Assembly: GCA_008632985.1 (NCBI GenBank)
Contig: QPGO01000011.1
Coordinates: 558,001-622,000, forward strand
Origin: Psammoneis japonica
Taxonomy: Eukaryota
DNA length: 64,000 nt
Direction of reading: 5' to 3'
Positions within the stretch are counted from its first letter, which is position 1; each line of letters starts with the position of its first letter. The notes below the pieces were generated by a model. It was not told the DNA's origin. It worked only from the letters and a program-made list of their open reading frames with translations, and ran no database searches. A program made the translations under genes and the position numbers. Of the stretch, positions 1,560-62,286 are shown one piece after another.

Positions 1560-4500
1560 AGGACCGCTTGTGCTGAATGTCCCTCATCCGTCCATGTTGA
1601 GAGTCTCCAACGTCACAGGACTCTGTCCAACCCAGATCTAGCCAGCGTGTGTCTTGGCTCCACTGTGCCAAGAAAGAAAACACTTGGCACAGCTCTTTTC
1701 CACAGCAAAAACACTGCCTGCGCAGTGCGCAATGCGCAAGCTCGCAAGCTGCTTTTCTTCATGTGCACAAGGCAATGTTTGCAAAGTTCACAGTGGCCAG
1801 TGCCATGTGATGTTGGCTTTGAGTGCAGATGGTGATGGACAGGGACCAGAGTGATGCAAGTGGCAAGCGGGGCAGGTTTGGAAACCCCAGCCACCCCACC
1901 ACCCCAGTCATGGGCGTGGGGCCAGCTGGGCCAGTCTCAAGTTTTCCTTTGGCACTTGCTGCTGAGCAGGTCAGCATGTCATGTGACCCCTGGCAGCAAG
2001 GACACTGCACAGGTGGAAGTTTCAGTTGACTGTGGGGCTGAGAAGCTGGCAAGAAGACCCAAGCTGCCAGTTGCTCAAACAAAAGAGAGTTTTTGATGAG
2101 GTGTCGCTGGACAGAACCAGCCCATTGTTTCAACAGACACATGCCAGCTCTTTTCAAAAGATTCCTGGAGATTGGAGAAGTGCATCCAAATGGTGTGTGC
2201 TTTTCTCAATTGCAAGCACTTGCACAACTGCTTTTGTCAAAATCATCTTCAGAGAGCACCTGACCAGTGACCAGCAAGACAGCCAAATTTGGGGGCCTTG
2301 TGAAATCAGTGGGCTTGCCATGGTTGGCACAACAAAAAGCAGTGGATTTGTTTGACAACGCGCACTTGCTGTCACTGAAAATAAATTCTTGCCCTCAACA
2401 CTGAGGCTGGTGGGTGCAAAAAACTTGGATTCTTGATGTGGAGACATGGGAAGACACCAGCAAGCATGACACAAAACATGAGCACAGCTGCGCATCTTGA
2501 AATGAAAGAAGACTTTGCACAATGAAATTGCCAGAGGCTCTGGAGGTGTGGTGCAGCAAGCAATGAGACAGCAGAGCAGCTGAGAAACAAGCAAGCACAG
2601 AAAAAAACAGTGCGTCAATGAAGACATCTTTTGTCCCCAACATGTGGCCACCACGTTGGTTGCTCTGGAGAAAAGAAGCTTTTGCTCATCAGCAACCACA
2701 CCACCAGAGAACTGTTGCACAGAAGCTTGGTGCCCAGGAAAGTCATGAGGAATTCTGAAGCAAAATTGAGGAAACAACAAAGAAAAGAAAAGCTGGCATG
2801 TGGAGGAAAAGAACCAACAAGCAGGAGGCATTCTCTGCAAAAAAGGGCCAGTGCATCAGTTTTGCTTTCTCTGTTGGCTTGGCTGTGTCAAACAATTTTT
2901 TTCATGCTGAGACCTGTGAACTGCTTCCAGAAAGTCATGCAGAATTTCAGCGTTTGTTGCTCTTCATGCATTTCTGGTTGCAGAATTTAAAGAAGGTGAG
3001 TGTCCTTCACATGTTGCCTGCATGGCCATCATGGGTGGACACATGATGTCAACCAGACTGTTTGCTGTGTGGCCACAGCCATCCAATGTTGAATCGCACA
3101 GAGTGCCAAGAGAGTGCATGGAGAACAAATGTCTTCATGCCAGCAAATGGATCTCTGTTTGTCACTGCCATTGACACAGCATTGAGGAGCAAAATCAACA
3201 AATTTGTCAACTGCACTTTGACTGCTTTGGTTTGACAAGCGCATGCCACAAGACAATGGAGCACCAGGAAGTGTGCTTTCTGAACAAAACAACACTCTCT
3301 CTCACTCTTTGAAAATGGTTTTTCTCTCCTTGCTTTTCAACAAAGTGTTTTTGACACAGATTGGTTGTTTGTGCAATGATGTGTGTTGCTCTGTGCCATT
3401 TCACAAGTTGACATCTCCTCCCTGACATTTCCTGAGACAGCAGCGTCGTTGTGTTTTCTCCAGCGCACTTGGCTGGCACAATCTCATGCATGTTCTCAAA
3501 AGAGAAAGTGACACACTGTTTCATGTTTCCAGTGCTGAAAGTGATGCTGTTTTGTGTTTCCAGTGCTCTCAATGAGAAGAAGGCAGTCTGAAAAAAAGTG
3601 TGCTCTCAAGTGAACGACGATGTGGATGTGGAGGCTCCACACCACCAGAGAGGACATCTCCTCGCAGCACTCGCACCATCCTCACAAGACGCTTTCCAGC
3701 CCTCTCTGTGACAGGTGGGACTCCGTGTGACATTGGGCCCGCAGAATTCTACGTGCGAGCTCCGCAGTGCGAGAATTAAATTGATGGACATGTTTGTCTT
3801 CAACATCAAATGAACGGCCAAGTTTGTGGTGCAATTGTGACTCTTGCCACTTGACGTTTTCGCAAATGCGCCTGCCCCACGTGATTCTTAAAAGACACCA
3901 TAGAATCGCGCTGCAACAAAAAATGTCAAAAGTTGTTGGACGGATCGCTCAACAAGTGCACCGTAAAATGAGACAAAACATCGAAAAAATCACGTGGAAA
4001 TCTACGTGCGCGACATGCGACGTGATTCAAAAAACTGTCGATGTCACAGTTCAGCAGTGCAGTGCGAGGTCCCACCCACCTGGACCTGGAGCGCGTCACA
4101 AGAAGTCACTGCACACAGGTGCACATCAGGATCCACCAGCATTGATGGCTCCGGCACTTTTCAAAGTGTTCAGCAGCACCTGTGAAACAGTCAAAGTGTG
4201 CTCTGTTTGAGATGGATGCTGGCTTTGACCAAGCAAACAATGAGTCAAAGAGCCCAGTCAGCAAGGATGAAGGAGAGGCAGCAACAAGAGGAGGTGCGGA
4301 AAATGCTGTGTGATGGGAGCAAAGAAGGGGCATGCAAGACACAGTGCATGGGGCCTTTCAAAGAAATGATGTGGGAAGCATTGGTGTGAAGAGAGCAGAG
4401 AGGAGCTGAGGGGCATTTGCGGAGAGATGATGAACGACGTTGTGTGCACCTCCCAGTTTGTGTGTGGCCCACCACACTGGGAGGGGTCTGGTGGAAGAGT

Positions 4501-19860: not shown

Positions 19861-20608
19861 TGTCCATCGTTTGGGTTTTTACTGATTGGAGGTTTTTATT
19901 ACAGTAAGTACAGAGTTAAAGAGTTTATGTAGAGCGGAAGGGAACAGCAGAAGGAGGCACGGAAGTACAGTAGCTGTAGTGGCGGCAGAGTAGAACGGGC
20001 GCAAAACGCAGGACGTAGGGCGTTTGGCAGAGGGAGTGGGAGATGAAGGGGCGGGGCGAGCGGGGAGAGAAGTAAAATCGGAGAGCGTGCATGGAGAGCG
20101 AGATGGAGAACAATGCTCTGCGTCGTGTTACCGGTATGGGTTTGAGTTCGTCTTCAAAGCGCGTTTTTGACGCGAGCATGCAAGACGATGGGCGCAGTCT
20201 CACCACAGGCTCAGGTCTCACGATCGCGATGAGCGAGCGATTGGGACGAATGATGAATGATGCCATCACTTTTAAGATTTGTTTCATTCATTTGAGTGCA
20301 AGCGTGATGACAACACTGAACAACATTGCAACACACACTCAATGAAATGCATCGATTGACAACACATTTCATTGATGCTTTGTTGTTGGGCTTGCACATT
20401 GGCTGGCGCACTGCCTGGAGTTGCTTTTGTGCTGTTGCTTCAGAAAACAAACATTGGGGCAGAGAGTGGGGAGCAGGAAGCAAGGGGAGGGGGGGGAGAG
20501 AAGCCAATGGGGGTGTTTCCCCTGGCCCACCCTGTGGACAAATCACCCTTGTTTCGTGCTGGTTTTTCTGCTGTCAAATGGCCTGTGTTTTGGTTGTCTG
20601 CCGACTTG

Positions 20609-20610
<2 letters not shown>

Positions 20611-20643
<33 letters not shown>
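20611..20643. repeat. (CTG)11 microsatellite
   Basis: Directly visible. Confidence 0.95.
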
Positions 20644-20644
<1 letters not shown>

Positions 20645-23524
20645 GCACCAAGGGCCATTCTTCTTGTGGGCCAAGCTGGTTGGAACACAGACAGATGTGG
20701 CAGGTGAGGATGGCCCAGGTCAAAAACACAGGACCCCTGCATTGTCACAACTTGTCGGCAGCCAGCTGAGCTTGTTTCCTTTGTTCTTTTTTTGCACCAG
20801 ATGCATCATGTGGAAATTTGCACAACTTTCTTCTTGTTGTGCACTGGGTGCTTTGCACACAACAAAATGGTTAGAGGGCTTCTGTTGCAGCAGTGGGTGT
20901 GCCTCTGGAACAGATCGTGGCCTCAGAGAAAAAGGCAAGATGTGGGTGGCCAGTGTGCTGAGAAACTTGGGGTGGAGAGAGAGCAACAAGAAGGAGCGCA
21001 GCCAGCACACCAGAGCAGCAGATCACAAAAACACAAACATGAGCTCCATTTGATGCTGAGCTTTGAAGATGACATTTGTGGCATTTCCATTGTGTGCATT
21101 TGGAAACTTTTGTTTTTGCTGCGCCAGCAACCCACACTGCCACCAGATTTTTTTGTTTTCAGTGAGACACAAAAACAAGGCAGAATCTCACAACAAACAA
21201 AAATTTGGGCAAGAGCTGGGTGGCAACACATTTCAATCTCTTTTACAATGATTTTTGTCAGTCAATCTTCATGCTGCTCAACGCAGTTGACAACGTTGTT
21301 TGAGTGCCACATCCACAGAGCAAAAGACAAAATGAAACATGACAGCTTGTGTGCAGAGTCTCCAACAATGCAGATTGCTTGCAAGGCAAACATTGTGCTT
21401 GTTTTGTGCCATCCTTACAAATGCAAGCCACAAAGCATCCAGAGCAACAAAGGCAGTGGCAAATGCAGAGCCAGCGATGTTTGCTCTTTCTTTTTTCTGG
21501 TCTGTGGTGAGGGGCAGCTGCTGTGGCCAATGTTTGCAAGAATTCACACTCCTGTGCCTGCCTGCAATCAAGCACAAGTCAACCACAAGTGCTCTTCATT
21601 CCTAAAAGCAGCAACACCCACATGTTGTTGTCAAGCACGCACCTTCTGTTTTGCAAACATCCTCATTCTCATCACCACAAGGCAACAACAGTTGAGCCAT
21701 CGTGGGCATTGAAAATGTCATGGTCATGGTGGTTTGGTGCATCCTCAGATTCACACAAATTTGTCTCAATTGTGCACAAAGCCAAAAATGTTGAAAACAC
21801 AAAGTGACCTTTTGGCTTTGTTTTGGGAGCCACCTGGCGAGAACCCAGCAGTGGATGCAAGCAAAAATCTAGACACCAGTTGATGATTGAATGGACAGCT
21901 GTTGGCAATGTCACAAGTGTGAGCAAGGTCAACAGCACACATTTGATTTGTTTGAGGTGAGCAGCGCATGCTGCAGTGGCAGCACAGAACAACCTTTGAG
22001 CCAATTTCACTGTCAGTGTGAGATGCAGAGGCTCCATGTGGCAAAATCCATGCTCTTGTTTCACACAGGTTTTCCTGCTTTGAAAGACAATTTCATGTTT
22101 TTTGTGGTGTTGCACCAGCACTGCCACCACCACTTTCTGTGTGGGGCTTGCAGCAGGTCATCTGAACACTCTCCTCTCCTTGCATGTCTCTCCTGTTCTG
22201 AGAGCAATTGGGGGCTTGCAGCCAAATTTTTGGCAAGTGGTTTTTGGACAGACAACTGCTGCTTCTCCTTGCCCTCAAATTGACAATTTTTCAGAGCTGT
22301 GTTGCCAACTTGTGAGCGCTCCTCCTGCTGCTGCTGCTGCTGCTTCTGCACCAAGGGGGCATTTCTGTCAACCAAGCCAGCCACAGTGCACAAGTTGCAG
22401 TGGCTGGCCATGTGGCAGTGCAACAAGCAAGCAAGACAGCCAATGACCGAAACAAACAAGACAACCACCAAATGAGAGCATGACAACCAAGACAGAAGAA
22501 GCACAATTTTTGGCTGCTTGCAGCAGCACGCAAGGAATGTTTTGGGGCACTTGTGATTGAAAAATGTGAGAGCAAGGTTGCTGAGCACTGCATGGGCAAT
22601 GCTGCGCGGCCCGCCCGTGTGTGGCTGGAAACATGATGGAAGACAAAATTTGGAAACATTTGAGTGCTGTCAAATTGTCCGCCAGTGCAGCACCAGTCAC
22701 CTGCTGATGCCATGCATGGGTTGGCACACAAACAGCCAGAAATGGTGCTGGCTCAGGGGCAATGGCTTAAATGCAGTGTTTTTCTACATTGGCGGGACAA
22801 ATTGCCAGCTGGCTGAGCACTTTCAGCTTTCCCTTTGCACTTCATTTTGTGCCAGACATGATGCATGGGGAAATCTGCATGCCATCAACAACTTTCCTGC
22901 ACACACACCCTTGCAAACTACAAGAAATGCAGTGCTGATGTGCTGCCAAAATCAACTGCCACATGAGGTGATTGCTGCACACCAGCACAGCAGCCGCACC
23001 AGCCAAAACATGTGACAACAGATGCAAAGCACAGCAGCAGTGTGTGGAAGGACCCACAAGGGACTTTGTGGCACAGCAGCACATCTGGGACACCAACAAT
23101 CCAGGTGTCGCACTGGCCATCAAGATTTCTTGAAATGAAGCCCGACATTTTCTCCCTTCAATCCAAGATCGTGCTGATTTGACAAGTCAGCTTTTCTGAA
23201 ATGTTCAACAACAAACATCCATGTTCCTCAATTTGACCATTTGCCCCCCCATCCGACAAGCCTCATGTGTGTGTTTAATTCTGTTTTAATTTCTGGATTG
23301 TGTGTTAATCAACTTTCTGGATCAAAATCGCCGCCCACATCCGTCAATCTAGATTCTAATTGTTTTCTCAATTTTCTCTCCCTGCCCATTCCATCCTTCC
23401 TCCCCGTCCATCCGCACATTGCATCTCTGTGTTTCTGCCCTCACCACATCCCCAAGTGATTGTTGCTGCACCCACTGTTTGCTTTCGATTCTCTTCTCAA
23501 CTCCTTTGTCTGTGTACATCGGCC

Positions 23525-24436
23525 ATGTCGTCCGATGGTCTTGTTTGTCCATGGTGCAAACAAACCGGTTTCTTTTCCGAACGTGGCCTCAGCAGGCACA
23601 TCGCAACTGGCTGCCTCCGTTCCGCCGTTTCCACCAAGTCTTTCAGTTGTCCTCATTGTGGACAACATGGATTTGACTCTGAAAACAACGTGCAGTGTCA
23701 CCTGTCTCGGCACTGCACCGCAGCATCTGGTCTCCATCCCCCATTGACACAGTTGCGCCGCACAACCCAATCATCTTCTTCATCCGGCGGAACATCTCTT
23801 TCCTCTCATCCTCTGGATTCTGCCTCCGTCGGCTCCCTTGGATCCAACACCAACAAACCCAAATGTCCCCATTGCCGTGTTCCCTTTTCCAACATCGCCC
23901 TTCATCTACAGAAGTGCTTGCCCTGCCATGAAAAAGAGGAAATGTCCCTTTGCCTGCATGCCGCATCTTCTGCTGCCGCCCATGCACTTCCCCCTCCAGA
24001 CGATGACCATGATGAATCACTGGACGACCATGATGATCCTGCTGGGTTTGGTTTCTCCGATGACGAACCCCCTCCTCCCCTCCCCAAAGTCCTTTGGAAT
24101 CCAGCTCCATCTCCTCCCACACCAACGGACAATTCTTCTCCAGCTTGTCCTCCCTCTGCGGAAGTGGACTGCGCCCACCCTCCGTCAGATGCTCTGGTCG
24201 ATTGCGCTCAGCTGCCAACTTTGCTGCCGCTGGTGCAGCCTCCCAAAATGTCCGCAGATTTGTTTTGTTTGCAGATGATGGTGTGTCCGCCCTTGGAGAG
24301 GACAGTCGTGTGGATGTTCCAAAGTTCATTGGAGCCGACCGTCGCGATGGCAGTTGTGGCCCCCCCTCAATTTCCCATCCGATGGAAGATCCTGTTTCCT
24401 CCCTCGATCAACCAGCCTCCTTCAAAGCCAATCTAA
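23525..24436 (+). pseudogene. Element-borne multi-zinc-finger protein (C2H2/C2HC-like) with acidic/Pro-rich tail, probably truncated
   Basis: CPWCKQTGFFSERGLSRHIATGC, CPHCGQHGFDSENNVQCHLSRHC and CPHCRVPFSNIALHLQKC; no Tyr in the 358-aa ORF. Confidence 0.65.
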
Positions 24437-25102
24437 TGTAGCTTGGGTGTACCGGCCATTTTGCAAATTCACCAAGGTGGTTTGGGTTGTGTGCATTGCT
24501 CTTCCCACTGCTCTCGAACATGAAGATTTTCGCATCAAACATCATCAGCATGATGCCACGGATTGAGTGATCTGTCAAACCACTTTTTTTGAGTGACAAA
24601 CAAACATGACCGCGCTCATTTGCCCAACATGTGGGAGAACAACAGAGCCTAATTTGGTGTCAAGGCTGTTTTCTATGCCAAACGGGGCCAGATGCACCGG
24701 CGGGGGACAACGCCCAGATGGATCATTGGTCAACACTGCAGATTGAGTCGGGTGGAATGCCATCGGGAGAGAAGCACGATGTGTCAGACGGAAAAGAGAT
24801 TCGTTGGTTCCATTTCAGCAATGTGGCCTAACAGGCAAGGGATTTGGCATGATTCTTTGGGGTGGGATCATTTTGAGGTTGTTGTTCTGCAAAGGGAATG
24901 ACAAGGCTGTGGAAGACAAGAAACAGAGTCACCCAAACAATGTCTGTTGCTGCTCAACATGAGTTGATCAGCAACTTGGACAAGATTCAGGAGAATGTGG
25001 TTTGCTGTGGGAGATGCACTTTGTGTCACATGCTGTGCAGGCCAGCACCAAGTGCACAAGTAAAAAAGTGGTGCCAAAGGCATGCACTGCCATGTGTGTG
25101 TG

Positions 25103-25240
25103 TTGACAAAAAACTGATGCCAAATTCTTCTGTGACAAATGTGTTTGACAACAGAAAAGTGATGCCGAATTACTTTGTTAACAAATGGTTCTAATGACAA
25201 AAAAGTGATGCCAAATTACTCTGTCAACAGATGGGTGCAT
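25103..25240. repeat. Three imperfect ~45-bp tandem repeats inside the TIR element
   Basis: tgacaa..aa[c/g]tgatgcc[a/g]aatt..tgt..aca[a/g]atg occurs three times. Confidence 0.8.
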
Positions 25241-25455
25241 CACCAAAAAAGCAACAGTTTGTTTGTGGTGCGGAATGTACGGTGGATGGAAGCTTTTGCT
25301 TTGTGTCTGCCGCTGTGGTGATGTGAAAATATCTCACATCATCACTGACAGAATTGTGAGCAACAAAATTGTTTTCTGTGCTTTTGAGATGGCTAGGATG
25401 ACCGATTTAATGAGATCATTCAGCAAACAGGATCGACGAAGATCACATCACACGT

Positions 25456-25592
25456 GACCATTTGCAAAAAAAACGTCTGTGATGCACCCGACAGACAGAC
25501 TGCCGTTGTCAAAACATCACATGGGACCATTTACGAAAAAAACACCCGTGGTGCCCACAACAGATGGACTGCCATTGGCAACACACATTTGG
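25456..25592. repeat. Two imperfect 69-bp tandem repeats inside the TIR element
   Basis: Units start gaccattt at 25456 and 25525. Confidence 0.8.
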
Positions 25593-26089
25593 CGAGAAAG
25601 CCGTTTTCATTGCAAAGCAATGGGTGCAGACTTTCGCTGCATTGGGTCTGTTCCACTCAGAGAAAAAGACCAGGTGCCATTTGATTTGGCAGAACAGGCA
25701 ACTTCAGAGAATGGCACGGAAGTGTTCTGTGAACGGATGCCGGAAATTTGCCCGTTGGCCAATGACGTCATGCCAGAAACATGGCAAGTTGCTGGCACGC
25801 CCGGGCGAAATGAAATCTCATGTCGTCAAGAGCAAGAAGGTGGGGTCCAAAGAAAGAGAGCACCAGGAAAGAAAAAAAGGCTGCTTGCAAAAATTCAAAA
25901 CACCACCACCCCTGCTCAACAAGACAACAACGCTTGCAAACAAGGCACCAAGTGGGAAGGGAGAAAAGGAATGACACTGTTTTGTCGGTGAGTTCGCCAT
26001 CAACAAAAAGGAAAAGGCGGAAGGTGTTGGGTTGGCAGAAAAAATGTTGGAGCCCAATTCCTGGCTTTCCCCTGGCAGGTGATTTAAGC

Positions 26090-26570
26090 AGAAAGACATC
26101 CCGGCACACAGCAGCAAACGCTCCTGCTTCAAGTTCAAGATCCAACTTCTGGTCAAAGGGGGAAATTCATTGCGATTGCGTGGAAACAAAATCATCACCT
26201 GGTGACAAAATTTTCACCATGTTTCTGTTCCTTGATGACACGACGGAGCATGATGGTGCAGTGGAGATGTGGCCGGACAGTTGTGAGGCAACATTGAATG
26301 AGAAGGAACTCAAAAAGACAATTGGTCAGGTTGGGTTTGGAAAAACAATTGCTGGTTGGAGAAGCAGGCACTGCATTTGTTTTTGATGCAAGAATGTTGC
26401 ACCGAGCTTTGCCCAACAAAATGAATTCGGATCGAAGGAACATGGCATGTCCAGTCCACAATTTCGACATGGCAAGCATGCGAACATGGCAAGCGTGTGA
26501 ACAAGCATGTGTTGGAATGCAAAACCAGCGAAGCAGTGAGTTGACATGGGCACAAAGTGGGTTTGTGTAA
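26090..26570 (+). pseudogene. Element-borne PhyH-type 2OG-Fe(II) dioxygenase, frameshifted and mutated
   Basis: GEIHCD (HxD)..IFTMFLFLDDTTEHDGAVEMWPDS in ORF 25820..26386 continues after a frameshift as GEAGTAFVFDARMLHRALPNKMNSDRR in ORF 26298..26570; same motif layout as the host PhyH gene at 4761. Confidence 0.75.
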
Positions 26571-26638
26571 AGGGCCAATTGACAATGCATTGCTTGCACA
26601 GACGACAGTTACATCACAAACAAAGTGAAATTGCAAAG

Positions 26639-27604
26639 TCACCCTCTTTTGGCAGGCTTGAATTTGCGTTTGATGTCAGACCCCAGGTCGTTCCTAGTGG
26701 AATGCCCAGTCTCCACGGCATCATCTCTTTTCTTGGTGTGCTTGTGAAGTGGGTGCCTGTCGACACTGCCTCCCCATGACAGATCGTCTGGACAGGCAGG
26801 AACAAAGAATGCTTCGTGCCTCCATTTGTGCATGTGAACACAAAACATCATGTCCAGTGAAATGACAATGGCACCTTCAGGACACTCGTTGGACAGCATC
26901 TCCTCGAGTTGGTTCTGTGTCGCATTGTTGTCAAAAAGCATTCGCCCATTGCAGTTGTTGAAGAAAATCTTTAAGTTGTTCAGACGGCACAACCGACGAA
27001 CAGCATCGTCTTTGGAGAGGAAGTCCTGATTGATCAGGGTCGGGAAGCGACTGGCATTGTTGTGCCATGTGGCATCACACCACTGAGAGCCAAGATCATG
27101 ACGGGGATGGTGGAACTCAATGCTGTGGGCATTGCAGGCAGGAACAAGCAGACGACAGGCAATCACAAAACCGCCAACACCACCACCAACGTCGAGGAAA
27201 TTAAAACGGCTTCGAATTTGTGCCGCAAAGAGAGAGGGGTTACAAACAACCTTGGTGGAGAAGGCAAAGCTTGCCGCACCACCGTGTGATTCCACACCAC
27301 CACCAGCAAAACGACCAATTTGATCATCAATTGGCGGCATGTGATTGCAACAGAGGGAACACACGCTCCTGTGACGGGAACGACTCACAACAACCATGTC
27401 TTGGTGACAATGACACACTTCAGTGGACATTAAAGTGGATTGGAAAATTTGGGCAACAGAGAGAGCAACTGGACAAACATGGCATCGGGGAAGCAGAGGG
27501 AATGACCCATTGAGACAGGGACAAGAAATGGGATGTTTGACACGACTTGACACACCAAAGGAAGCAGATGTTGCATCAATGAGGAAGCGCAATGCATGCA
27601 CCAA
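26639..27604 (-). pseudogene. Element-borne class I SAM-dependent methyltransferase, DOT1 (H3K79)-like
   Basis: FLDVGGGVG (motif I), SIE..R, QDFL, IFFNN and PEGAIVISL appear in DOT1 order (DLGSGVG, GIE, DF, IFVNN, GxRI[V/I]S); no Tyr in 321 aa. Confidence 0.65.
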
Positions 27605-27916
27605 TTAAGGAGATACAACACATTGTTTGGCATTGATTTGAATGACATGGCAATCTTCATTGGTGCATTGGATTGGCTAAAAAAGGTGCACAATTCAAAA
27701 CAGCAAAACGTTGATAGAAATGCAAACATGGGGTTGGGAATGAGAACTCAAAAATGACACAAAGACCTGTTTGAATCAAGAGAGGACACGCGAGCAATGA
27801 CAAAACCGAGAAAATCACATGCAAAAGTGCGTTCTTTTTGCAACTTACCTTTCATAAAGCGACAGGAAAGGATGGAAGTTCCAAAAAAGAGGAAGCCATT
27901 GGGAAGGTAAAAAAAA

Positions 27917-29211
27917 ATGGAGGATGCGGTTCTCACAGGAGCGACGGAGGGAGGAAGTGTGACTTCCAGTGGCAAGTGAGATTGAGAAAGGACATGACAA
28001 AGAATTGCTGATGAACTGACACAATTGTTGGATTGATCTGTGTGGTGTCACATGAAGTCACCATGAGTCCTGCGGTGGTGGCCTTGTTGCATGCACAAAG
28101 AAATGAACATGGGGAATTGAACAGATTCCAGCATGCAGGTGGCGACTCAATTTCAGTGGTGACTCCCACAGAGGGATGTCTTGTGTTGGATCGTGCACCG
28201 GCAGTGAGCAAGAAATTGATGGCATCGATGTTGACTGAGGTTGTCAATGAGAGTGTTTGGCCATGTCGCAAGTTCACAATCTTCGATCATGAACTCACCG
28301 TGGGAGGAGCTTGCATGAAATTGGTTCTGCAGGAGCCAAGGAGCATGGTGTCTTCACTGGAGAAGTTCTGGGAAGAATGCAAAGAGGTGTTCAGGACCAA
28401 ACTCAACCGAAAGAGGAATGATGTGCAGGACAACATTGGGAGGAGAATGACAGGTGAGCAGATGTGTGCGTGCCAGTGATTGTGTTGGAGGCGATTGTCC
28501 AACGGGATGAGTGTCTCTTCCTTTGCCATTGTCTGTGCAGTTGCTGCTTTAGAGGGATCACTGGTGGCTTACGAAGACTTGACAAAGGAAAGAAATGAGA
28601 AGGACACATGCGTGTGGTTCTTGGAAACTGTGGCGCCGACGGTGGTGGGACAAGCGCAGTTTGGTGGAAGCACAACCGACATGCTTCAGGAATGGCTTTC
28701 AGTTTCGTCGGAGGTGTTTGCTCTGCCAGTGTGCTTGAACTGCTGCAACAAGGTGAAGGACACGGCAGAGAAATTGGAAAAGGAAGAAAACATTGCAAGG
28801 AGAAGAAAGCCAACTGTGAAAGATGCTGCTCCTGCAAAGCACACAGCACAGGCAGCGGGGGAATCAGCAAAGAGGAACCAAGGATGGAGCAAGGAGGGGA
28901 TCGAGAAGTGCAATGATCTGCATCAGTGGGTGGTGAAAGACAGAGAGAACAACCAGGGATTCGGTGCATGGTTCAAGGAGAGAAGGCGAGAGAAGACAAA
29001 CTTGTCTCAGGAGGAAAACAAGAAACGCAAGAGAGAGGAAAAAAGAAAGGAGAGAGAGGAAGGATGGGCGGCGCCAATGGGAGAGGACCTGCCATTGCAG
29101 GCGGTGGCTGCAGGCAACGGAGCGGCAGCAAATGCTGCAATGGCCACCAACCAAACTGGTGTGCAAACTCAATTTGAGACAAACAATGATGTCTGGACAA
29201 GTGAAAATTAA
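27917..29211 (+). pseudogene. Element-borne hypothetical protein resembling accessory ORFs of diatom DNA transposons
   Basis: ORFs 28033..28479 and 28480..29211 are joinable through an intron-like GTGAGCA...TGTGCAG; motifs LSVSSEVFAL and GWSKEGIEKCNDLHQWVVKDRE, with C/H where Tyr is expected. Family recall unverified. Confidence 0.5.
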
Positions 29212-30047
29212 AAAAAACATTCTGCGACATGGTTCAGATGCAACAACGTGTGGCAATTGGGAGTTGGATTTGAAAACGGCGCAGCAATGAGATAAAATGT
29301 AGGACGAGTTAGTGGAAAAGGAGGGTGGATTGCAAGCAGCAACATTTGTGTCAAAAGAACGAGAAACCCCAAATGTCAATTGGGGTGCAGGTCTGCATTG
29401 TGTGAAAGGAATGATCGCGCTTAAAAGTGAGAAGCGATTTGGGTTTTAGAAGCTTATAAACTCATGCAGTTCTCATGTCACATTCAAGGAGAGAATTGGC
29501 TCATGAGTTGACAAAAATCTGGCATTGAAGTCAAGAAATGCCCAGATTGTGGCAGACGGTCAGACCCAGATCATTGGCGTCCCAGATGCAGATGTGCCTC
29601 TTTTGAAATGGAGGCAACGGCATTCAAGCTCTCTGTTGATTTTTTGTTGAAACAATCAGGAGGCACGTGGCATTCACCCTACAGCAGCCTAAACGGCTCG
29701 CAGTGAGCGAGAACTCAACGGACACATAGGACACAAGCGAATTTGCTTCACATATTTTAATTGATGGATGCATAGATAAATGTTGGTGATTATATTGAAT
29801 GTCCATTTTCAATATCCCGCATTTTGGATTTTGAGAGAAGCCTTGAATTCTCGTCACAAAATCACAGCGATCGCACAATCTTTTGGCGGTTTCTGGGTTC
29901 TCTTTTGTTACTCTAGCTAGGGCCATACCCTCTTGGTTGTACCGATACCTTTTAGCTCTGTCAATAGCTGTCTCATCAGTGAGTATAGCATCCAGATTCA
30001 TTGTTACCCGCGACAAGCAAAGGCCTTGTTTTCCAGCACCGCTGCTC

Positions 30048-31874
30048 ATGTACGTCGTGCAGATGACTTCTCGCTACGTTTACGCGCTTGCTTTCCTTCT
30101 CGCCTTGGTACTTGTGTTGCTTGCTTTCGACGGGGTGTTTCCCCCCGCCGTTTCCGTCAAGCTTCGAACCCGGTCGCGTGAGACGCGTCGATCTCTTCAA
30201 GGATGTCAGGATAGTCCATCAAGGAAACTGATTTCTGAAGCGGGTTTCGTATCCTGTCACGCTTTCTCGCAGCTCCCGGCTTCCACAATAGCAAAAACCT
30301 GCGAATCCCAGGCTCAAGCCCTCCAGAGTTGTCCCAGAACGTGCGGTGTGTGCGACCGCGTCCTATCGTCGGTTCCAAACGATTCACTTGGAACATGGGG
30401 CGAAAAGTTCGACATGGAAATCATCCCAATTCACGTAATGATTCTACCCGATGGAAAAGTACTTTCGTTTGGGGCCAACAAGGCAGGAAGCAGCAGGAAT
30501 CCCGAAAATTATTATGAAATCTGGGACACAACCACGGGCGAACATGCGCTTGGAGTCAATCACGTCCGGTACTCACACGAAACAGAAGTCAATATCTTTT
30601 GCTCGACGCTGTCCATTGATGTGACAACAGGCAATGTTCTGATCATTGGTGGCACTGGAGACATTATCAACGTTGTCGGTAGTGAGTTTGAATCCAATGG
30701 CTCAAACGGAGTTTTGGAGTTTGATGTCACAACGTACGAGATGCGAAAACACCCCCTGGGGGACATGCGGTATGCGCGTTGGTACGCCACCAGTATCAAC
30801 ATGCCAGATGGACAGATCTTTGTTGCGGGTGGAAAAGACGAGCGACTCCTTCCATTCGCTAGTTCCATCCCTGAAATCTGGAATCCCACAACGGGGTGGC
30901 GCATTTTGTCGGATGCGGATGTTCCTGCCATGAAATCAATGCTCTCATATTTTCTCTTTGGACAGACTGCATGGTGGTATCCTCATGTGTTTGTCAACTC
31001 AAGCGGGGACATCTTTCTCATGATTGCCGACAAGATTAATGCCGACGTGTACTGCGTAGGCGTGGAAGGACTTGGATCGATTAAAAGGGTGGCAACCCGA
31101 CCATTCGACTCTCACAAACTTGGACCGTCCATAATGTACGATGTGGATCAGGTTGTTGTGTTGGACATGTATGCCAATCTCTGGACTGTGGATATTTTTG
31201 ATGCATCCCAGCCGGTTTTTACAAAAAGGGCGCGTCTCTCCAAAAAACGAATCAATCCCACCATGTACCTCCTGCCGGATGGTCGCGTCATGATCAACGG
31301 TGGCTCAGAAGAGGAGACTCATGACGATGTGGGCTCCACTGAATTTTCATTAGAACGGGCCGTGCGCTTCGTTGAAATATGGGATCCGGTTGAAGACACG
31401 GTGTTTAAGGGACCAGAACAAGAAACAGCGCGCCTCTACCATTCATCTGGTCTCATCCTGCCCGATGGGAAAATATTTTCGGCGGGCGGAGGAGCACCAG
31501 GCCCCATACAGAATTCGAATGGACAGATGTACTATCCCGGCTTCTTGTATGATCCCGAAACTGGCGAAGAGGCATCACGTCCTCTGATTGAAACATGGCC
31601 CGAGACAATTCTAGCTGGCGACACATTCATCATCACTGTCGCTGATCCGTCAGTTATTGCCAAGGTGACTGCCACGAAGCCTGGTTCGATGACGCACGCA
31701 CGTAATGCCGACGCTCGGTGGCTCAATCTAGACTTCCAGATTGATGGAACGAGCATCACTGTGTCCACTCCTGGTCCGAACATCATGATCGTTGGTGTAT
31801 GGTATTTGAACGTGATCGACACCAGTGGAGTTCCATCTCCTGCACGTCTCTTTATGGTACCCCTACCGGAATAA
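30048..31874 (+). CDS. Copper radical oxidase (galactose/glyoxal oxidase, CAZy AA5-like) with kelch repeats and C-terminal DUF1929-like domain
   Basis: N-terminal hydrophobic anchor; NIFCS (Cys), ARWYAT, WWYP (Tyr), RLYHSS (Tyr-His) and GSMTHA (His). Start at 30048 or 30063. Confidence 0.88.
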   Translation: MYVVQMTSRYVYALAFLLALVLVLLAFDGVFPPAVSVKLRTRSRETRRSLQGCQDSPSRKLISEAGFVSCHAFSQLPASTIAKTCESQAQALQSCPRTCGVCDRVLSSVPNDSLGTWGEKFDMEIIPIHVMILPDGKVLSFGANKAGSSRNPENYYEIWDTTTGEHALGVNHVRYSHETEVNIFCSTLSIDVTTGNVLIIGGTGDIINVVGSEFESNGSNGVLEFDVTTYEMRKHPLGDMRYARWYATSINMPDGQIFVAGGKDERLLPFASSIPEIWNPTTGWRILSDADVPAMKSMLSYFLFGQTAWWYPHVFVNSSGDIFLMIADKINADVYCVGVEGLGSIKRVATRPFDSHKLGPSIMYDVDQVVVLDMYANLWTVDIFDASQPVFTKRARLSKKRINPTMYLLPDGRVMINGGSEEETHDDVGSTEFSLERAVRFVEIWDPVEDTVFKGPEQETARLYHSSGLILPDGKIFSAGGGAPGPIQNSNGQMYYPGFLYDPETGEEASRPLIETWPETILAGDTFIITVADPSVIAKVTATKPGSMTHARNADARWLNLDFQIDGTSITVSTPGPNIMIVGVWYLNVIDTSGVPSPARLFMVPLPE

Positions 31875-44689: not shown

Positions 44690-47600
44690 GGCGGTTGAGA
44701 GTACATCCCAGACAATGGCCACTCTTGAAACTCATTCTGTCAATGAGAGTTGCAGCATGTCATTGCATCAAACTGATGGACAAACCCTGCTTTTGACAGG
44801 GAAACATTCTCAATGCTGGAGCCACTTGAGCTGCTTTGGCTCTTCATGCTTGAGCTGCTCTTTGAGCTGGAGTGACTTCTGTTCTTGGTGCTTGAGACAC
44901 GTTTCTGTTGCTTGAGCCCCTGCTCTCTCCTCAGCACTTGAGCCAATGGCACTGCTCTTGCTGCCAGAGCTGGGGTTGCCAGAGTTGTGACTGGCTGCTG
45001 AAAAGTCACGGCTGTTGGAGCTGCTGCCAGAGCTGTTGCTGGAGCTGTGAGCAAAGCTGTCAGAGCCAATGCTCAAGCAGGAGCTGCTGGATCTGCTGCT
45101 GGAGCCAGAGCTGCTGCTGCTGTTGCTGAGTGGCTTCACATCATGCTCTTGCCACACAACCAAAGCCAGACCAACCTTTTCCGGTGCTTTGGTGTTGACT
45201 TTTGTAAAAAAAAATGTGTCATGGACATCAACATCCTGGTGTGCCAGTGCCCACATTCATCAACTTCCTTGCAAGATTGCTCTTGTTCATCACAGGTCAG
45301 ACTTGACAGCACAATTTTGCTTCCCAACCTTGGTTGGGTGTGATGGATGTGACAGGGAAAACTTTCGCCCAACCAGACCACTGAGTGGCAAATGATTTGA
45401 AATCTGCAAACACCTGCACATTGAACGTTGACAGACCAAAATGGTCTTTTTGTGGGTTCAGTCACAGAAAGTCATTCTCTTGACCCCCACCCACAACAGC
45501 CACAGCAGCACGTCACATCACTTTTTGTTGAGCAGCAGCACTTTGAGCACAAAAGCACCACAGCCAGGCAATGTCAATGTGAAAAGTGCAACGATGTTGT
45601 CTTTTTTGTGGAATTTTCCAAATGTGCTTCCTTGTTGGATCCATGCTCACAATTTTGGCTAGAGCCTCACTGCACTCATGCTGGCAGCATGATGCTGGTG
45701 TGCTGCACTTCAGACAAGGTTGTGCAACAGTGCACCAGCCACACAAAACACTGCCAGCACACCCATGCTGTCGTGTGCTCATTTTTTAAAAGATGTTTCA
45801 GGTGAGTGGAAGGAAATCTTCTTTGCACTTTAACCCCACCACAAAAAAGTTCTCTGCAATGGCACATTTTGCACCAGTGTGCAAAACACATCAGGGCACC
45901 ACTGGTGTGCAGGGTCATCAACCCACCACCATCATCATCTGGGTGTCTCCGTGCATGTTTTGTCATGTTTCTGCTGCTGGTGCAAATTTCAGGCATTGTC
46001 TCCAACCAGCCAGAGCTGGTGTGAGACCCAGGCATTGAGCAGCTGTGCCAGCCAGCATGATGAGCACACACCAGCCCAAGTTCCCTCCAACCTTGCTCCA
46101 ATCTTGTGCTGAGGTGACAACATGGGGAAATGTGGAGAAATTGACAAAAAACCTGCTGGGAGAGCCAACAATGATGTTGACATGGTGCACACAAGAAGTC
46201 CAAACCTTCGCATTGTTGCTTCTTGCTGGGCTGCTGCACAGCAGCAGCTCTGTCAGATCCTTGTTTGTGAGCCATTGCAGCTGTCCAATCTGAGACACGC
46301 AACACTCTGGTGGGAAATTTTGAAACCTGCTGATTTGGCCATTCACAACGCCACATTGCTTGCCAACTCTACACTGACCCACCAAGGGCTGGATTTTTGG
46401 CAGCCCCCTCTGAGTCAAAACTGGCAAAATCATGGAAAGACAAATGACATCAATGAGTGATCAAATTGGCGGCAGTGTGAGACAATCCTGGTGTGCAGGA
46501 GATTTGTGTAGAAGTGGCTGAGAGTGAGAGAGAGTGAAAGATTGCAAGAGGGAGCTGCTGTGGGGGGGCTGCATCTTCAATGAAGCAAAGCACGCTGTTC
46601 CAGGATTTTTCTGTGCAGAGCAACAATTTGGGCCCAAGGAGTCACTCAGAGACTTGTTTGATTTTGGAGAGAGTTGTGTTGGAACATGCTCCAGCTCCAG
46701 GCAGAGTGCTTTTGATCTCTTGAATCACTGAGTTCCTCAACAGCATTTGTGGCAAAGTTGTTCTTGACCTGGATCAGCTGCAGTTTGAAGACAAGAAACG
46801 CACTTGTGCCAAGGTCAGGGCTCATGAGCTCATGCTGAGAGACCACACCTTTCACAAGCTCAGCACCCCACCCAAAATGAGGAGCCCCAAGGATGCAAGA
46901 TGCAACAGCCATTTCATCAATCTCAATGAAAGCTGCTCTCAACATGAAGACCAAAAAGGGCGGCAACTCCACACCACCTCACCTCTCCTCAAGACAGATG
47001 CTTGAGCAGAAGATCCAACTTGCTGTCCAAAAGCTGGTGAAATGACAGTGTGAGCTGCAGTTGGAGTGCAGAGCACATGTGCCTCAACCCCTGACATGTG
47101 GTGGCAGAGTACACCATGGGCTGGAATGTGAGTTTTCACTTGTGCTGCAGCAAGCATCAAACAAAAGGCCCCATCTCATCCACCATCATTGGACAAATGT
47201 TTTCCCATCATTTTGCATGTCCAATGTTGTCACAGACTTGTGCGAGGATGTGCCAAGCCCTTCATCATCTCACATGACACCCAGTGGGTGTTTTAGAGAT
47301 GCTTCTGTGTCTGTGTGTCAAAGAATGTGCTGCATGCCACTGGCCTGCACTTGTGTCTCCTCCAGTGAGGAACACAAATTCCACATTGCCGCATGTTGAC
47401 AATCTTGCCATGGCATCACACGGCTCCTCATCAGGCCCTGCATTGCCCACTGTGGCTGCCAGCATCATGTTTTTTGAAGGTTCCCTCGTGTTTGTTGCAT
47501 CTGCAGATCAAGGTGCAACTTCTGCCACCAGCCAATGCCAGTGGGAAAGTTCAAATTGGCAGGTGTCATGTTTGGATCTAAGATCCTGGTCACCACCATG

Positions 47601-48960
47601 CCAAGTTGTGCCCCAACTCCAAGGAGGACTTTTTCCTTGGCCATTTGTCTGATGCCACCAAGCACATTTTTGGCACATCTTAAGAAACATCTCAGGTCCA
47701 GATTGCCGCACAAAAGTGCATTTGGACAAGGGTGTGGATGATGTCTGTCATGCAAAGGATTGGTGCAGCAACCAAGACACTTTGTCTCTTCCAGCAGCCA
47801 TGATGACAGAGATGTGGAACAGCTTCTTTGTCTCCTGTCTTGCCTGCTGCAACCTCTTCTTCTACAAGTCACAATGGGTTTCCAAGAGTTGAAGTTGGGT
47901 TGGTTTCCCACATCTGCTGCCAGTGGCTGCAAAATGCTGCTGCCCTGTCTCATGTTGAAGGTGTGCTTGCTGTGAACACCCAGATGGATCTTCAGCTGCA
48001 GACACCATTTTGTTGAGTGTTGCCTGTGCTGCCATGCCTGCAATCTCTGATGTGGTGCTGCAGGTGAGCTGTCTGCAGTTGCTGGCACTGGCTCCCTCAC
48101 ACTGCTGCCTGCCACACTGGCGGCACTTCCCACTGCCATCTGTTGCTTCCTGCCTGCTCCAGACCCCAAAGTTTTTGTTTCTGATGACCCCACTGTTTTC
48201 TGCACAATGGTGGCCACACATTTGTCCCATGGATGAGCCGCCCTCTGTTGCCAAGGTCACACCCAAGCTGCTTGCTGTGTGTGTGATGTGCCATTGTCCA
48301 ATGCTTGTGGACACAGAGCCACTGCTTTTTGTTGATTTTGGATGTGCACTGTTGTCATTCCTTTGATGAGCAAAACCACGCAGAAGCAGGCAACTCTGGG
48401 TGAGGGCTGCTGAGTGTTTTGTTGCCTTCTGCTGTGCAACCTCTTTCATCCACTGCTCCAGCTGTTGCTGCATCACAGACTCCACAATCACCACACATTT
48501 TCTGATCAAAGGAAGGCTCACTGTGGCAAAGAGGAAGTGGCACAACTGTCGAGCATGATTGCAAAGAGTCCTTTTTCGGCAACCAAGTTTTGTGCATCAT
48601 GTGGCACTCACTTGCCATGATGCATCCAGTCTCTTCTGATGGTGAGTTGTCCAAGAAAACACATTCTTTTTCCAATGTCTCACATGACCACAGGACAGGC
48701 AGGCACCATCCATGGCATCAGACATTTGAAAATGCAGCCAACTTTCAATGGAGCACATGCCTTTGTTGCGCTGCATGGGCAAGTGAGACAGAGTCAACTT
48801 CAATGGTTGACCAGCAGTGGCCAATGTTGACATCCATTCTAGGCTGCCGAAGAAGGTGTGCTCAATTATTTTTACACGTGGCATCACGAAGCTGGGCGGA
48901 ACAAGTAAGCCAGCAGCATGATTTGGAGCAATCTGCCTTGTTAATTGTCAATGGAGTGAG
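44690..48960. mobile_element. Block C: hypermutated repeat-derived DNA, family unidentified
   Basis: Nearly free of TA and CG over ~4 kb by eye; no recognisable protein domain. Confidence 0.65.
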
Positions 48961-59115: not shown

Positions 59116-59274
59116 GGGGGGGGGCATGTGCATTTGTGTGGTTCTGGTTGGAGCATGTGTGTGTGGAAAAGAAAGCCAGCATGACCACATGGTCAGCAAT
59201 GCACAAGGCAAGCTGTGTGCCAGTCATTGTGAGGCAAGTTGGGCTGTGGCCACAACAGACGGGTTCCAGTCCCA

Positions 59275-59642
59275 GGTGGGACTCCGTGTGACATTGGGCC
59301 CGTAGAATTCTGCGTGCGAGCTCTGCAGCAAATTCATGCTGCAATGAAAATGCAAATGAAATGATCGCCAACAGAAAAAGAGGCAATTTTACCAACGCAT
59401 TTCCTCCTCCATGCTTGAGGTGCATCGTTGATGGTTTGCCCGGGTGCATTCGTCAGACATCAAAGAATGTGCCCAGTGCATTTTCATTGTCACAAATGTT
59501 GAAAATAGAAAGCCTTTGGCTTTGCAAAACAGAGAGTGTGAAACAATTTCGGAGAACACAACACGCAGAAATGTGCGTGCGCGACATGCGACGCGATCCA
59601 AAAAACTGTTGATGTCACAGTGCAGCAGTGCGAGGTCCCACC
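59275..59642. mobile_element. MITE-like element copy 2 (368 bp)
   Basis: Same termini and CA flanks as 3714-4076. Confidence 0.8.
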
Positions 59643-61171
59643 CAGAGCTGGAATGCATCAACATCACAAAGGATGGGGACCAGCGCTGGGGTGCTGGCCC
59701 AAAGCAGCAAGGTGGCATGGGTCTTGTTTGTGATGTGGCATGTTTGGCAGCATGGGTGCAGAAGTTGGCAAAGACTTGGGTGTGATGGGAGCAGGGTTTT
59801 TGAACTCTCTCTTGTGAGGCAGGGCCCAAAGAGTGTTCACCACACAAAAACCTCAACCCGCCACCAGAGTTGCTCTTTGGACAAGTCTTGACAAAACCAA
59901 TGTGGGGTTGCCGAGGGTCTGGGTGGAGGACCTTGTGTGGAGTTGAAGGCAATTTTCATTCTGGCAACAGAGGATTGCTGGCTCTGCCGCTTGCAAGTGG
60001 TGGCTGAAGAGGCCCCTGGCACCTGGGAGGCAGCCAGTGCCATGATGGAGTGGAGCTCACCCTGGTGGGCTGTGTCAATTGGTGTCAATGGCCAATCTCT
60101 TCTGCATCAGCAGAGTGTTGTGGATGAGAGTTCAGAGGCAGTTAGAGCAATGCAGTGTCAATGATTCAGCCAAGGGGAAGCTTTGCCTGAAGTTTGACAT
60201 GCGGTGCTCTTTGGCAGCTTTTTTGCTGAGATGGGAACCCACGCTGACTGGAGTCCTTGGTGTCAAGGACACATCTCATGGTTGGCATGGAGAAGCATGC
60301 ATGACAAACTTGGTTGATGTGACAAGTGCTGCTTTGAGCAACAGCAATGCAGTCATAAAATGTGGCTTTGTGGTGTTTGCCAGTGTGTGGGTTAAATGGT
60401 TTGTCAGGGTGGGACCACACGTTTGTGTGACATTTGCCCATGTTCCTTGTGAAGGTCTGGGAGACAGCAGCAGCTGTGCTGGCATTGGCTGGAGCTGGCA
60501 ACAAGGGCAGTGCAACAGCTGGTGTGACATCAAAGAGTGTGTGGCTTGAGCAGCAGGTGCCATGGCTCATCATGCCAGTTGAGGAGATGCAGTGATTGGC
60601 TTTGTGTGACATCAGTGATGGCTTCAATGGCAGTTGCAAAAATGTGGTGGTGACCACTTGGTCCAGCCAGCTGCCAAAGAAAAGACCATGGAGAGCTGCT
60701 CTCTCTCCAAGAAGGTCTGGCCAAGGCTGGAAAAGAGATGCTGAGCTCTGGAGCATCAGGAGTGTGGGCCTGCACATGGCAAGCTCATCAGCAAGAGGAG
60801 CAATCTTGATGAAGCACACTGTGATCCACAGCAAGAGTCAGCGCAGACCACCTGGGTGATGAGTCACTTGAGCACCTGGCCACAAACTGCACAGCTTTGG
60901 AGGGTGAGAAGCAAAGTGTCTTCTTGTTCAAACCACAGTGGGAGGGGCCAACAATGGCTTGGAGCCACTGCTCACCATGATGTGGCATGATGCCAGCAGG
61001 GCTGGTGGACAGGTTTGGGAGGTGTCACATCCAGATGTGTAGAAAAACCATCCAGAATGCCTTCTGGACCATGTTTGCCATCCAATCATGTGAGAACTCT
61101 TGACACACACAGGTGGGCTTGCAGGAGCCGCCTTGTGCTGCCACTCTGCATCTTTGTGGTGTGCCAAGGAC

Positions 61172-61173
<2 letters not shown>

Positions 61174-61248
<75 letters not shown>
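61174..61248. repeat. (TG)n microsatellite, ~37 units
   Basis: Directly visible. Confidence 0.98.
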
Positions 61249-61249
<1 letters not shown>

Positions 61250-62286
61250 TGTTGATCATGACTGGCATGCCACAGCTGCCTGGCTGATGGACCAGATGTT
61301 TTGTGGGATGGTGCACAAGGTGTTTGCAGTCAGCAAAATCACTGCACCCCTGACATTGATGGAACAATGTGGTCAAAAGTCACATCAGCTGAGCAGCCCA
61401 GCATTGCTTCCTCCTGCAAGCAATGTCACCAGCTGGTTTGTCTGTCACACAGCTTTGGGAGCCAATGGCACAACTCGCCAATGCTTGTTGCCAGAAGCTG
61501 GAGCAGAAATGACTGTGGAGCAGTTGGCACCTGTTCTCACAGGCATCATTGTGATCAACTTTTTGGCTGGTTTTGTGCCATCTGCAAAAGCAGGACATCT
61601 TCTTTGGTGCACAGCCGGTGATTTGCTGCTCAGTTTTTGTTGCATGCCCCCCCCCCCCCCCTTGCACGGCAAGCCAGACATGCAGGGCAGCTGCCAGCTG
61701 CAGTGGAGGCTCACAGGAAGATGCACACTGCTGCAACTGTTGCAAGAAGAATGGGCACAACACCATTGCAATGAGAGCCTCACTCTGGAATGCAGACAAG
61801 GAGAAACTGGAATTGGGTGGTTGCGACCACCTCACACCATCTCACTGTGTCTCCTGGAAAAGCTTGAGTCTGGCACAGCACCTGTCGTACAGAAGCTTTA
61901 TGAGAAGACAGCCCAATCAATGGATTTCACTGAGGAGAAAGCAGACAAACCCAAGTTCCAGACGAGAATCTGGAATTGGCTGGTTGCGACCACCTCGCCA
62001 TCTCACTGGGTCTCCCGGAAAAATGGAGGATGAATGAAGATCCGATGGCAAAAGAGAAGCTTGTGGAAGGTGTTCGCAATTTCCCGAAGCACATTGTCAA
62101 ACTCGAGGACATCGTCAAGTCAAAGATGGCCTAGAGAGCACATGCAAAACATCTCGTGCCAATTGAATAGATTTGATTAGAGTGGATTCATTAAGTCGCA
62201 TCTACACGAACCTCAGTGCCACACAAGTGTGTCATGTGGCAGGACCTGCAGGATGGTCGAGGTGGAAGAAAAAAGCACACTTGAAT

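Follow-up and report, generated by a model that had tools for sequence, protein, structure and literature searches.

The 64,000-nucleotide stretch of the diatom genome analyzed here (contig QPGO01000011.1, or C11, positions 558001-622000, in the 91-Mb Psammoneis japonica assembly; hereafter the window, to whose positions the coordinates refer) carries a Plavaka-type DNA transposon, flanked by terminal inverted repeats (TIRs), in which the dinucleotide TpA (TA) is nearly erased and many CpG (CG) dinucleotides remain. Comparison of the copies of this transposon and of two further families, Gypsy and Copia, shows that TA changes to TG or CA, on both strands and independently in each copy, that the change follows insertion, that the decay of CG in these families is 5 to 16 times slower, and that the rate of the change depends on several bases around the dinucleotide.

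The erasure is confined to mobile DNA, with genes spared. The genic DNA of the window has an observed to expected ratio (O/E) of 0.58 for TA and 0.98 for CG, whereas in four TA-erased blocks the ratio for TA is only 0.04-0.11, that for TG/CA reaches 1.5-2.0, and that for CG goes from 0.53 in the transposon down to 0.11; three element families are affected in the genome. The stretch 23500-24430 of the transposon holds 43 CG (O/E 0.66) and two TA (O/E 0.04), and a recount of 23521-23640 gives nine CG and no TA, in agreement with the initial annotation. That annotation also described a block C devoid of both dinucleotides and gave no limits for it; with the limits adopted in this analysis, TA is indeed nearly absent, but CG is strongly depleted rather than absent. 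The blocks and the parts of the transposon are these:

1700..4500, no strand: TA-erased block (TA O/E 0.04, CG O/E 0.34)
20300..23081, no strand: block C, an old single-copy relic of 2,782 bp (TA n = 8, O/E 0.04; CG n = 26, O/E 0.16)
44750..48800, no strand: TA-erased block (TA O/E 0.04, CG O/E 0.11)
59120..62100, no strand: TA-erased block (TA O/E 0.05, CG O/E 0.21)
23082..29588, + strand: Plavaka-type TIR DNA transposon, internally deleted copy (TA O/E 0.11, CG O/E 0.53)
23082..23095, + strand: left TIR, the 5' end common to the copies
29575..29588, - strand: right TIR; the termini pair at 13 of 14 positions
23080-23081 and 29589-29590: 2-bp target duplication CA, on both flanks of the element
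23500..24430, + strand: 5' part of the transposase frame (23360-24436), with zinc fingers
23348..23353, no strand: TCTAGA with a protected TA, retained in 14 of 14 younger copies
23907..23908, no strand: TA in atcTAcag, retained in 14 of 16 younger copies and one of the two TAs remaining in 23500-24430

Block C is older than the transposon, as the initial annotation supposed, because its depth in the sequencing run X1 is that of a single-copy sequence (34-73, against 900-2800 over the transposon) and its matches elsewhere in the genome are all short (68-87%). The 14 differences between block C and the contigs from X1, which may be the assembly's own sample, are all TA- or CG-type steps, and the preponderance of the CG type (10 of the 14) is what an already spent TA would lead one to expect.

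The assignment to Plavaka comes from an 881-amino-acid frame in the copy of the transposon located in contig C267 (G000:C267). This frame matches the zf-C2H2 domain and, with an E-value of 4e-5 and 23.4 bits, under the cut-off of 26.3, Pfam family PF18759, so that the element appears to combine the Plavaka features, that is, a transposase domain (matched below the cut-off) with N-terminal zinc fingers, TIRs and a short target duplication. Duplications of 2 bp flank other two-ended Plavaka copies as well (L033/L034, L036, L037, L045 and L049). There are at least 30 copies of the element in the genome, and the homology of the window copy to most of them ends at 24412, inside the transposase frame.

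The direction of the change is apparent from the comparison of these copies. The C267 copy retains 37 TAs, compared with 2-11 in 29 other copies, and at these 37 sites the 29 copies read TG 442 times, CA 380 times, TA 150 times and CG seven times, with 61 other states and 33 gaps. The TG and CA outcomes are arranged differently in each copy, as a mosaic in which the same site is TG in some and CA in others, and because only TA yields both products at one site, TA is the ancestral state. The two strands contribute comparably, with 4628 TG and 4035 CA in the larger data set used for the context model below. The C267 copy is part of a nest containing elements of all three families (G000:C267:65700-81437; L031, L032, L081) that is nearly free of TA conversion, being only slightly converted itself, and keeps long open frames, possibly because it is young, free of methylation or active; its TA-rich Gypsy and Copia elements served as the references for these two families. 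The copies compared are the best-scoring candidates, namely, 40 of 71 scored for Plavaka, 26 of 274 for Gypsy and 40 of 1010 for Copia, and the near-duplicate Plavaka copies L041 and L048 were excluded from the analyses of rate order, site retention, context and symmetry.

The initial annotation had proposed that TA is converted faster than CG decays, and the polarized copies bear this out. The window copy of Plavaka has lost 131 of 154 TAs and 35 of 138 CGs at a transversion distance of 0.35%; within 23500-24430, 13 of 14 ancestral TAs and 11 of 49 CGs are gone, with three transversions in 789 other sites. The loss of TA exceeds that of CG in all 81 copies (27 Plavaka, 25 Gypsy and 29 Copia), with median TA to CG hazard ratios of 5.1, 10.7 and 8.1, respectively. 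When the Plavaka copies are binned by transversion divergence, the lost fraction of TA is 0.86, 0.88, 0.93 and 0.93, and that of CG 0.28, 0.32, 0.45 and 0.69, so that CG depletion never equals or exceeds TA depletion, even in the youngest bin.

The long terminal repeats (LTRs) of Gypsy provide a second and cleaner clock for these rates, one that requires no outside polarity. Among 20 whole Gypsy regions, 16 yielded LTR pairs and four had no usable pair. The 380 TA site pairs comprise 62 that are unchanged, 107 with a change in one LTR, 84 changed in opposite directions and 127 changed in the same direction. Within single elements, the LTRs are discordant at 191 of the 380 TA sites, which places the change after insertion, compared with 71 of 522 CG sites and 51 of 4994 other positions, most of the latter being TA- or CG-derived. 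By our own arithmetic from these pairs, the loss per LTR site is about 70% for TA and about 7% for CG, a hazard ratio of about 16, and TA changes, on a rough estimate, some hundreds-fold above other sites. The ratio of same to opposite changes matches the concordance of 0.60 between unrelated copies (computed on Gypsy states with the 3' LTR mapped twice, uncorrected), so that inherited changes are not needed to account for it. The Gypsy LTRs of C267 have only four differences, all TA versus TG or CA, and none at 33 CG sites; the 4-bp target duplication of the copy L113 reads CTAT on one side and CTGT on the other.

The recognition extends beyond the dinucleotide, as the initial annotation had surmised from the TTAA, TCTA and TAGA contexts of the surviving TAs that it named; these are TTAA at 2987, 3776 and 23275 and TCTAGA at 23348. 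In the four blocks (19,184 bp), 20 of the 84 survivors are in TTAA, compared with 65 of 1617 genic TAs, and 25 are in TCTA/TAGA, compared with 211; YTAR accounts for 39 of the survivors versus 272 genic TAs (Fisher p = 1e-9), and RTAY for seven versus 482. Tabulation of all NTAN contexts against genic DNA excludes equal survival (chi-square 91.6 with 9 degrees of freedom, p = 8e-16, some cells being small).

The same conclusion comes from a competing-risks model with 12,530 observations at 635 sites in 81 copies, exposure per 500 bp and a bootstrap over sites. On the strand of the changed A, the effects at position +1 are 1.88 for C, 1.82 for T, 0.65 for G and 0.45 for A, those at -1 are 1.68 for A and 0.66 for T, those at -2 are 1.59 for A and 0.55 for T, and that of A at +2 is 0.57 (standard errors of the logarithms, 0.05-0.09); there are weaker effects at 3-4 bases. 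About 2-4 bases on each side thus matter, and the model predicts held-out families. The favored context on the edited strand would be approximately 5'-A-A-T-A-Y-notA, with junctions of T-runs and A-runs (TTAA, TCTA/TAGA) resisting, and the latter survive because the context is slow on both strands. In the cross-family test, the log-likelihood gains are 578 and 927 for the full model, 337 and 728 for a strand-symmetric model, and 240 and 203 for an antisymmetric one; because the symmetric gains exceed the antisymmetric ones, the neighborhood in the duplex sets most of the rate. The choice of strand is biased about 2:1, with YTAY sites going to TG and RTAR sites to CA. Apart from TA, the change is rare: in Gypsy, A>G affects 33% of TA, compared with 0.59% of AA, 0.26% of GA and 0.21% of CA (singletons only for the non-TA contexts), and transversions at TA amount to 0.17%. 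Same-strand runs of changes were not found in the Gypsy states (0.48-0.54 observed versus 0.49-0.52 permuted, states uncorrected).

The loss of TA is not a product of CG decay, another point anticipated by the initial annotation, because 5-methylcytosine deamination has no way to yield the A>G/T>C changes seen at TA, and because nearby CG does not increase the rate (-0.07 +/- 0.04 for CG within 12 bp and -0.07 +/- 0.07 for 12-50 bp). Yet both processes spare the same tracts. In four mosaic Gypsy copies, 10 of 286 CGs are lost in TA-spared tracts versus 85 of 562 in hit tracts, whereas other changes are even (55 of 2580 versus 92 of 4203, in bins classed by TA loss). Outside the elements, 13 of 91 flanks have normal TA far out, and across the first 500 bp of these the O/E for TA is 0.17, 0.29, 0.45, 0.46 and 0.70, with CG lowered as well in the first few hundred bases. 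One of the flanks with a TA gradient is single-copy, the LTR of the copy L122 beside a TA-rich flank is spared, and erasure can stop inside an LTR; in these few, unpolarized cases, the limits of erasure are set by a domain rather than by homology. A search for an empty-site allele at one flank, to polarize the changes there, was negative. Because the tracts and flanks that escape TA loss also escape CG decay, a chromatin state is probably common to the two processes. A separate TA-spared patch near the gag-pol junction (the equivalent of about C267:71700-72200) is common to six Gypsy copies (L111, L115, L116, L117, L120 and L121) and is not spared in L113, L118, L119 and L122-L125; it reflects either site-specific protection or gene conversion.

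Candidate enzymes were sought as Pfam profile matches in the genome, which number 10 for PF00383, five for PF14437, four (at two loci) for PF02137, 29 for PF00145 (C5 DNA methyltransferases) and two for PF01429. The deaminases are a dCMP deaminase, a TadA-like protein, ADAT2, RibD and a guanine-deaminase-like protein, the labels other than ADAT2 being our own reading of the motifs. There are two genes with the editase domain (PF02137), either of which could be ADAT1. The second of these (L143, G000:C79:344558-345390) is a member of a family found across the diatoms, with the HAE/CAE and PCG catalytic motifs intact in all 120 listed homologs; no RNA-binding domain was found in the 27 long members scanned. 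One of the 27, P0117 from Nitzschia inconspicua, has the editase domain fused to an MBD (E-value 9e-4, below the cut-off), but its N-terminal half has no match among the other 119 listed homologs or the editase loci of P. japonica, and a merged gene model may account for the fusion. The candidates, then, are ADAT2 (in C26) and the second editase-domain gene (in C79).

The agent of the change is probably a host adenine deaminase that would act on silenced chromosomal DNA site by site. A transposon would land and be incorporated into a domain of silenced chromatin, which is probably CG-methylated; there the deaminase, acting distributively, would convert the TpA adenine of one or the other strand to inosine, and replication would fix TG or CA; each site would change once because a change on one strand leaves no TpA on either. 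TA is gone at well under 1% background divergence and CG decays slowly, which is why old blocks lack both dinucleotides and young ones only TA. A deaminase is favored because of the pure transition, the strict 5' T and the preference for TA that TadA-derived editors display on genomic DNA, and the process may serve defense against mobile DNA. A more specific version, in which an adenine editor of duplex DNA, natural to diatoms, is steered to methylated transposon chromatin and reads the duplex TpA context, as an A:T-to-G:C counterpart of repeat-induced point mutation (RIP) across the algae of the stramenopile, alveolate and rhizarian (SAR) lineage, with the C79 editase family as its catalyst, is possible but doubtful.

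Several observations weigh against the deaminase. A>G on one strand and T>C on the other leave the same sequence, and context alone shows neither an enzyme nor whether A or T bears the lesion; of the claim in the initial annotation that TA is recognized as an enzyme would do it, the context dependence stands and the enzyme itself is an extrapolation. The symmetric part of the context explains more of the held-out likelihood, whereas a simple single-strand deaminase predicts otherwise. The searched families include only ordinary-looking deaminases, and a chromatin-reading domain was not found on the candidates of this genome, with the C79 gene read to 1.5 kb upstream. The flank gradient is unpolarized and comes from 13 selected flanks, and the spared tracts could be due to gene conversion from young donors. 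As regards timing, transversion distance to C267 is no measure of age in Gypsy and Copia, where its correlations with the loss of TA are -0.28 and -0.70, respectively, and some Copia copies carry shared inherited changes, with concordance above 85% in 10 of 378 pairs.

Among the alternatives, a lesion located on T, or else a mark placed symmetrically on the palindromic TpA, appears rather unlikely but would leave the same outcome in the sequence: T (modified, for instance, to 5-hydroxymethyl- or 5-formyluracil) or A (methylated and then deaminated) would be altered in silenced duplex DNA, and mispairing would fix T>C. Oxidation of thymine by TET/JBP enzymes and mispairing of oxidized thymine offer a route to such changes, TpA is palindromic like CpG, the context is largely strand-symmetric, and the affected tracts co-vary with CG decay. 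However, Tet_JBP (PF12851) and MT-A70 (PF05063) have no matches in the genome, in a search without a control over the cut-off, and the context has a real asymmetric component, manifest in the preference for C at +1 and in the biased choice of strand. A dependence on CG damage is invoked by error-prone gap-filling, with a polymerase-eta-like enzyme turning WA into WG during the repair of T:G mismatches that arise from 5-methylcytosine deamination. The co-localization of TA loss with CG decay and the approximately twofold excess of AA>AG over GA or CA fit this proposal, but polymerase-eta WA mutagenesis has an AA rate near that of TA and many transversions, whereas here TA exceeds AA about 55-fold and transversions are rare; moreover, there is no rise in rate near CG, there are no same-strand clusters, and TA events outnumber CG events several-fold, so that this explanation is improbable and polymerase-eta WA mutagenesis as such is rejected.

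Editing before insertion, of the transposition intermediate, whether as RNA, through an enzyme resembling ADAR, or as cDNA, is very improbable. The second editase-domain gene and the changes common to some Copia copies are compatible with it, and ADAR prefers a 5' U (bioRxiv 10.64898/2026.01.13.699255). But the LTRs of one element differ at half of the TA sites, many in opposite directions, which refutes such editing as the main source; the strands are about equally affected; the changes also occur in a DNA transposon, in a target duplication and in flanks; and the 3' preference is for C/T, not for the G of the UAG hot spot described for ADAR2 (PMC10661471). The one-strand clusters and LTR-shared changes of ADAR/APOBEC-type editing are not seen. 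Finally, it is hardly credible that the polarity is wrong, with C267 having gained TA by RIP-like CA>TA changes, or that the pattern is an artifact of CG decay, selection or assembly. A single reference region, itself slightly converted, does polarize all three families, but the coexistence of TG and CA at one site, the finding of TA at CG sites in one of 1769 cells, the long open frames of the C267 copies and the LTR pairs all speak against an inverted polarity, and the contigs from X1 (subject to the caveat on the origin of this run) reproduce the single-copy block.

With respect to its testable features, the diatom process works like the TpA hypermutation of Bigelowiella natans described in the preprint of Mettrop et al. 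(bioRxiv 10.64898/2026.01.13.699255). There, the integrated DNA of nucleocytoplasmic large DNA viruses and virophages undergoes TpA to TpG/CpA changes at a rate of about 6e-7 per site and generation, about 1000 times the background per generation and episodically among lines; the preprint, with 231 mutations (its Table S2), has direct mutation-accumulation rates, whereas the diatom rates come from comparison of copies and LTRs. The enzyme is given as unknown, with ADAT2 proposed, and transposase and reverse-transcriptase domains are overrepresented among TpA-poor coding sequences. Both processes consist almost solely of these transitions, on both strands of foreign or mobile sequence integrated in chromosomes; unlike in Bigelowiella, the host is a diatom, and Plavaka, Gypsy and Copia are all near saturation. 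The rate relative to CG decay, the motif wider than TA, the strand symmetry and the spread into flanks go beyond the preprint, in whose main text a term search for 'diatom', 'context', 'flanking' and 'CpG' gave no occurrences. A homolog of ADAT2, a universal tRNA enzyme, is present in P. japonica. No diatom report of TA-erasing mutation was found in a literature search that was thin on subscription papers.

Other known systems resemble the process in part. The tRNA target UAC of the ADAT enzymes resembles the 3' pyrimidine preference seen in the diatom transposons. Like TadA/ADAT deaminases (ABE8e; ADAT2/3), the process brings about A>G/T>C with a preference for TA, as described for genome-wide off-targets of the TadA-derived editor ABE8e (PMC13225742); unlike these engineered or tRNA enzymes, which act on single strands, it has a largely duplex-symmetric context and targets transposon domains. 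RIP, the work of RID/DNMT4 in ascomycetes, is likewise a dinucleotide-specific transition hypermutation of inserted transposons with some spread into flanks. It differs in that C:G goes to T:A, mostly at CpA, creating TpA (PMC2621366), whereas here TpA is destroyed, the borders are not set by homology and there are no strand runs; with the direction opposite and C>T affecting only 0.18% of CA in Gypsy (counted as singletons), RIP, which moreover acts before meiosis and depends on RID, is rejected as the source. Diatoms are described as carrying DNMT4 enzymes related to RID, of unknown function, and as methylating CG in transposons by DNMT5a (PMC9998398). CG decay of such methylated transposons gives the same products, TG and CA, in the same regions, and differs in the base affected and in its slower rate.

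The Bigelowiella preprint, the one published case found, describes only two hypermutable regions and gives neither an enzyme nor a motif longer than TA, whereas the diatom genome gives thousands of polarized events, and the locus described here adds the rate order relative to CG decay, the wider motif and the strand symmetry. Candidate enzymes can be checked against this quantitative fingerprint of the motif, in a group with knockout tools. If the deaminase is real, a natural adenine deaminase for duplex DNA would be a new chemistry of genome defense, directly useful for base editing. For genome analysis, ages of diatom transposons estimated from the divergence of LTRs or the identity of copies come out too high if TA sites are left unmasked, and dead DNA free of TA yields long false open frames.

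The transposon has, in addition to the transposase, a second frame:

25510..26919, + strand: second-frame region, broken in the window copy, from comparison with the C267 copy

In the C267 copy, this frame (L032:5301-6161; about 25620-26480 in the window) has matches, below the cut-off, to a PhyH-like 2-oxoglutarate- and Fe(II)-dependent oxygenase and to a WRKY19-type zinc finger, and a homolog search found no proteins of near length. Several copies of C5 DNA methyltransferase genes (L152, L153, L154, L158 and L161; contigs C301, C297 and C28) are located in TA-erased DNA, some with stops, alongside intact paralogs in normal DNA, so that copies of host genes are hit as well; a fragment of a deaminase gene (L140, G000:C151:67565-67717) lies on the margin of another TA-erased stretch. 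The window also contains ordinary host genes with normal TA, namely, a galactose-oxidase/kelch protein (29847-31874), a CHD-type SNF2 remodeler (33968-41214) and a BioA-like class III aminotransferase (50715-52181), as well as a short mobile element that occurs twice, at 3688-4097 and 59258-59659, and is also nested in the Plavaka copies C267, L045 and L044.

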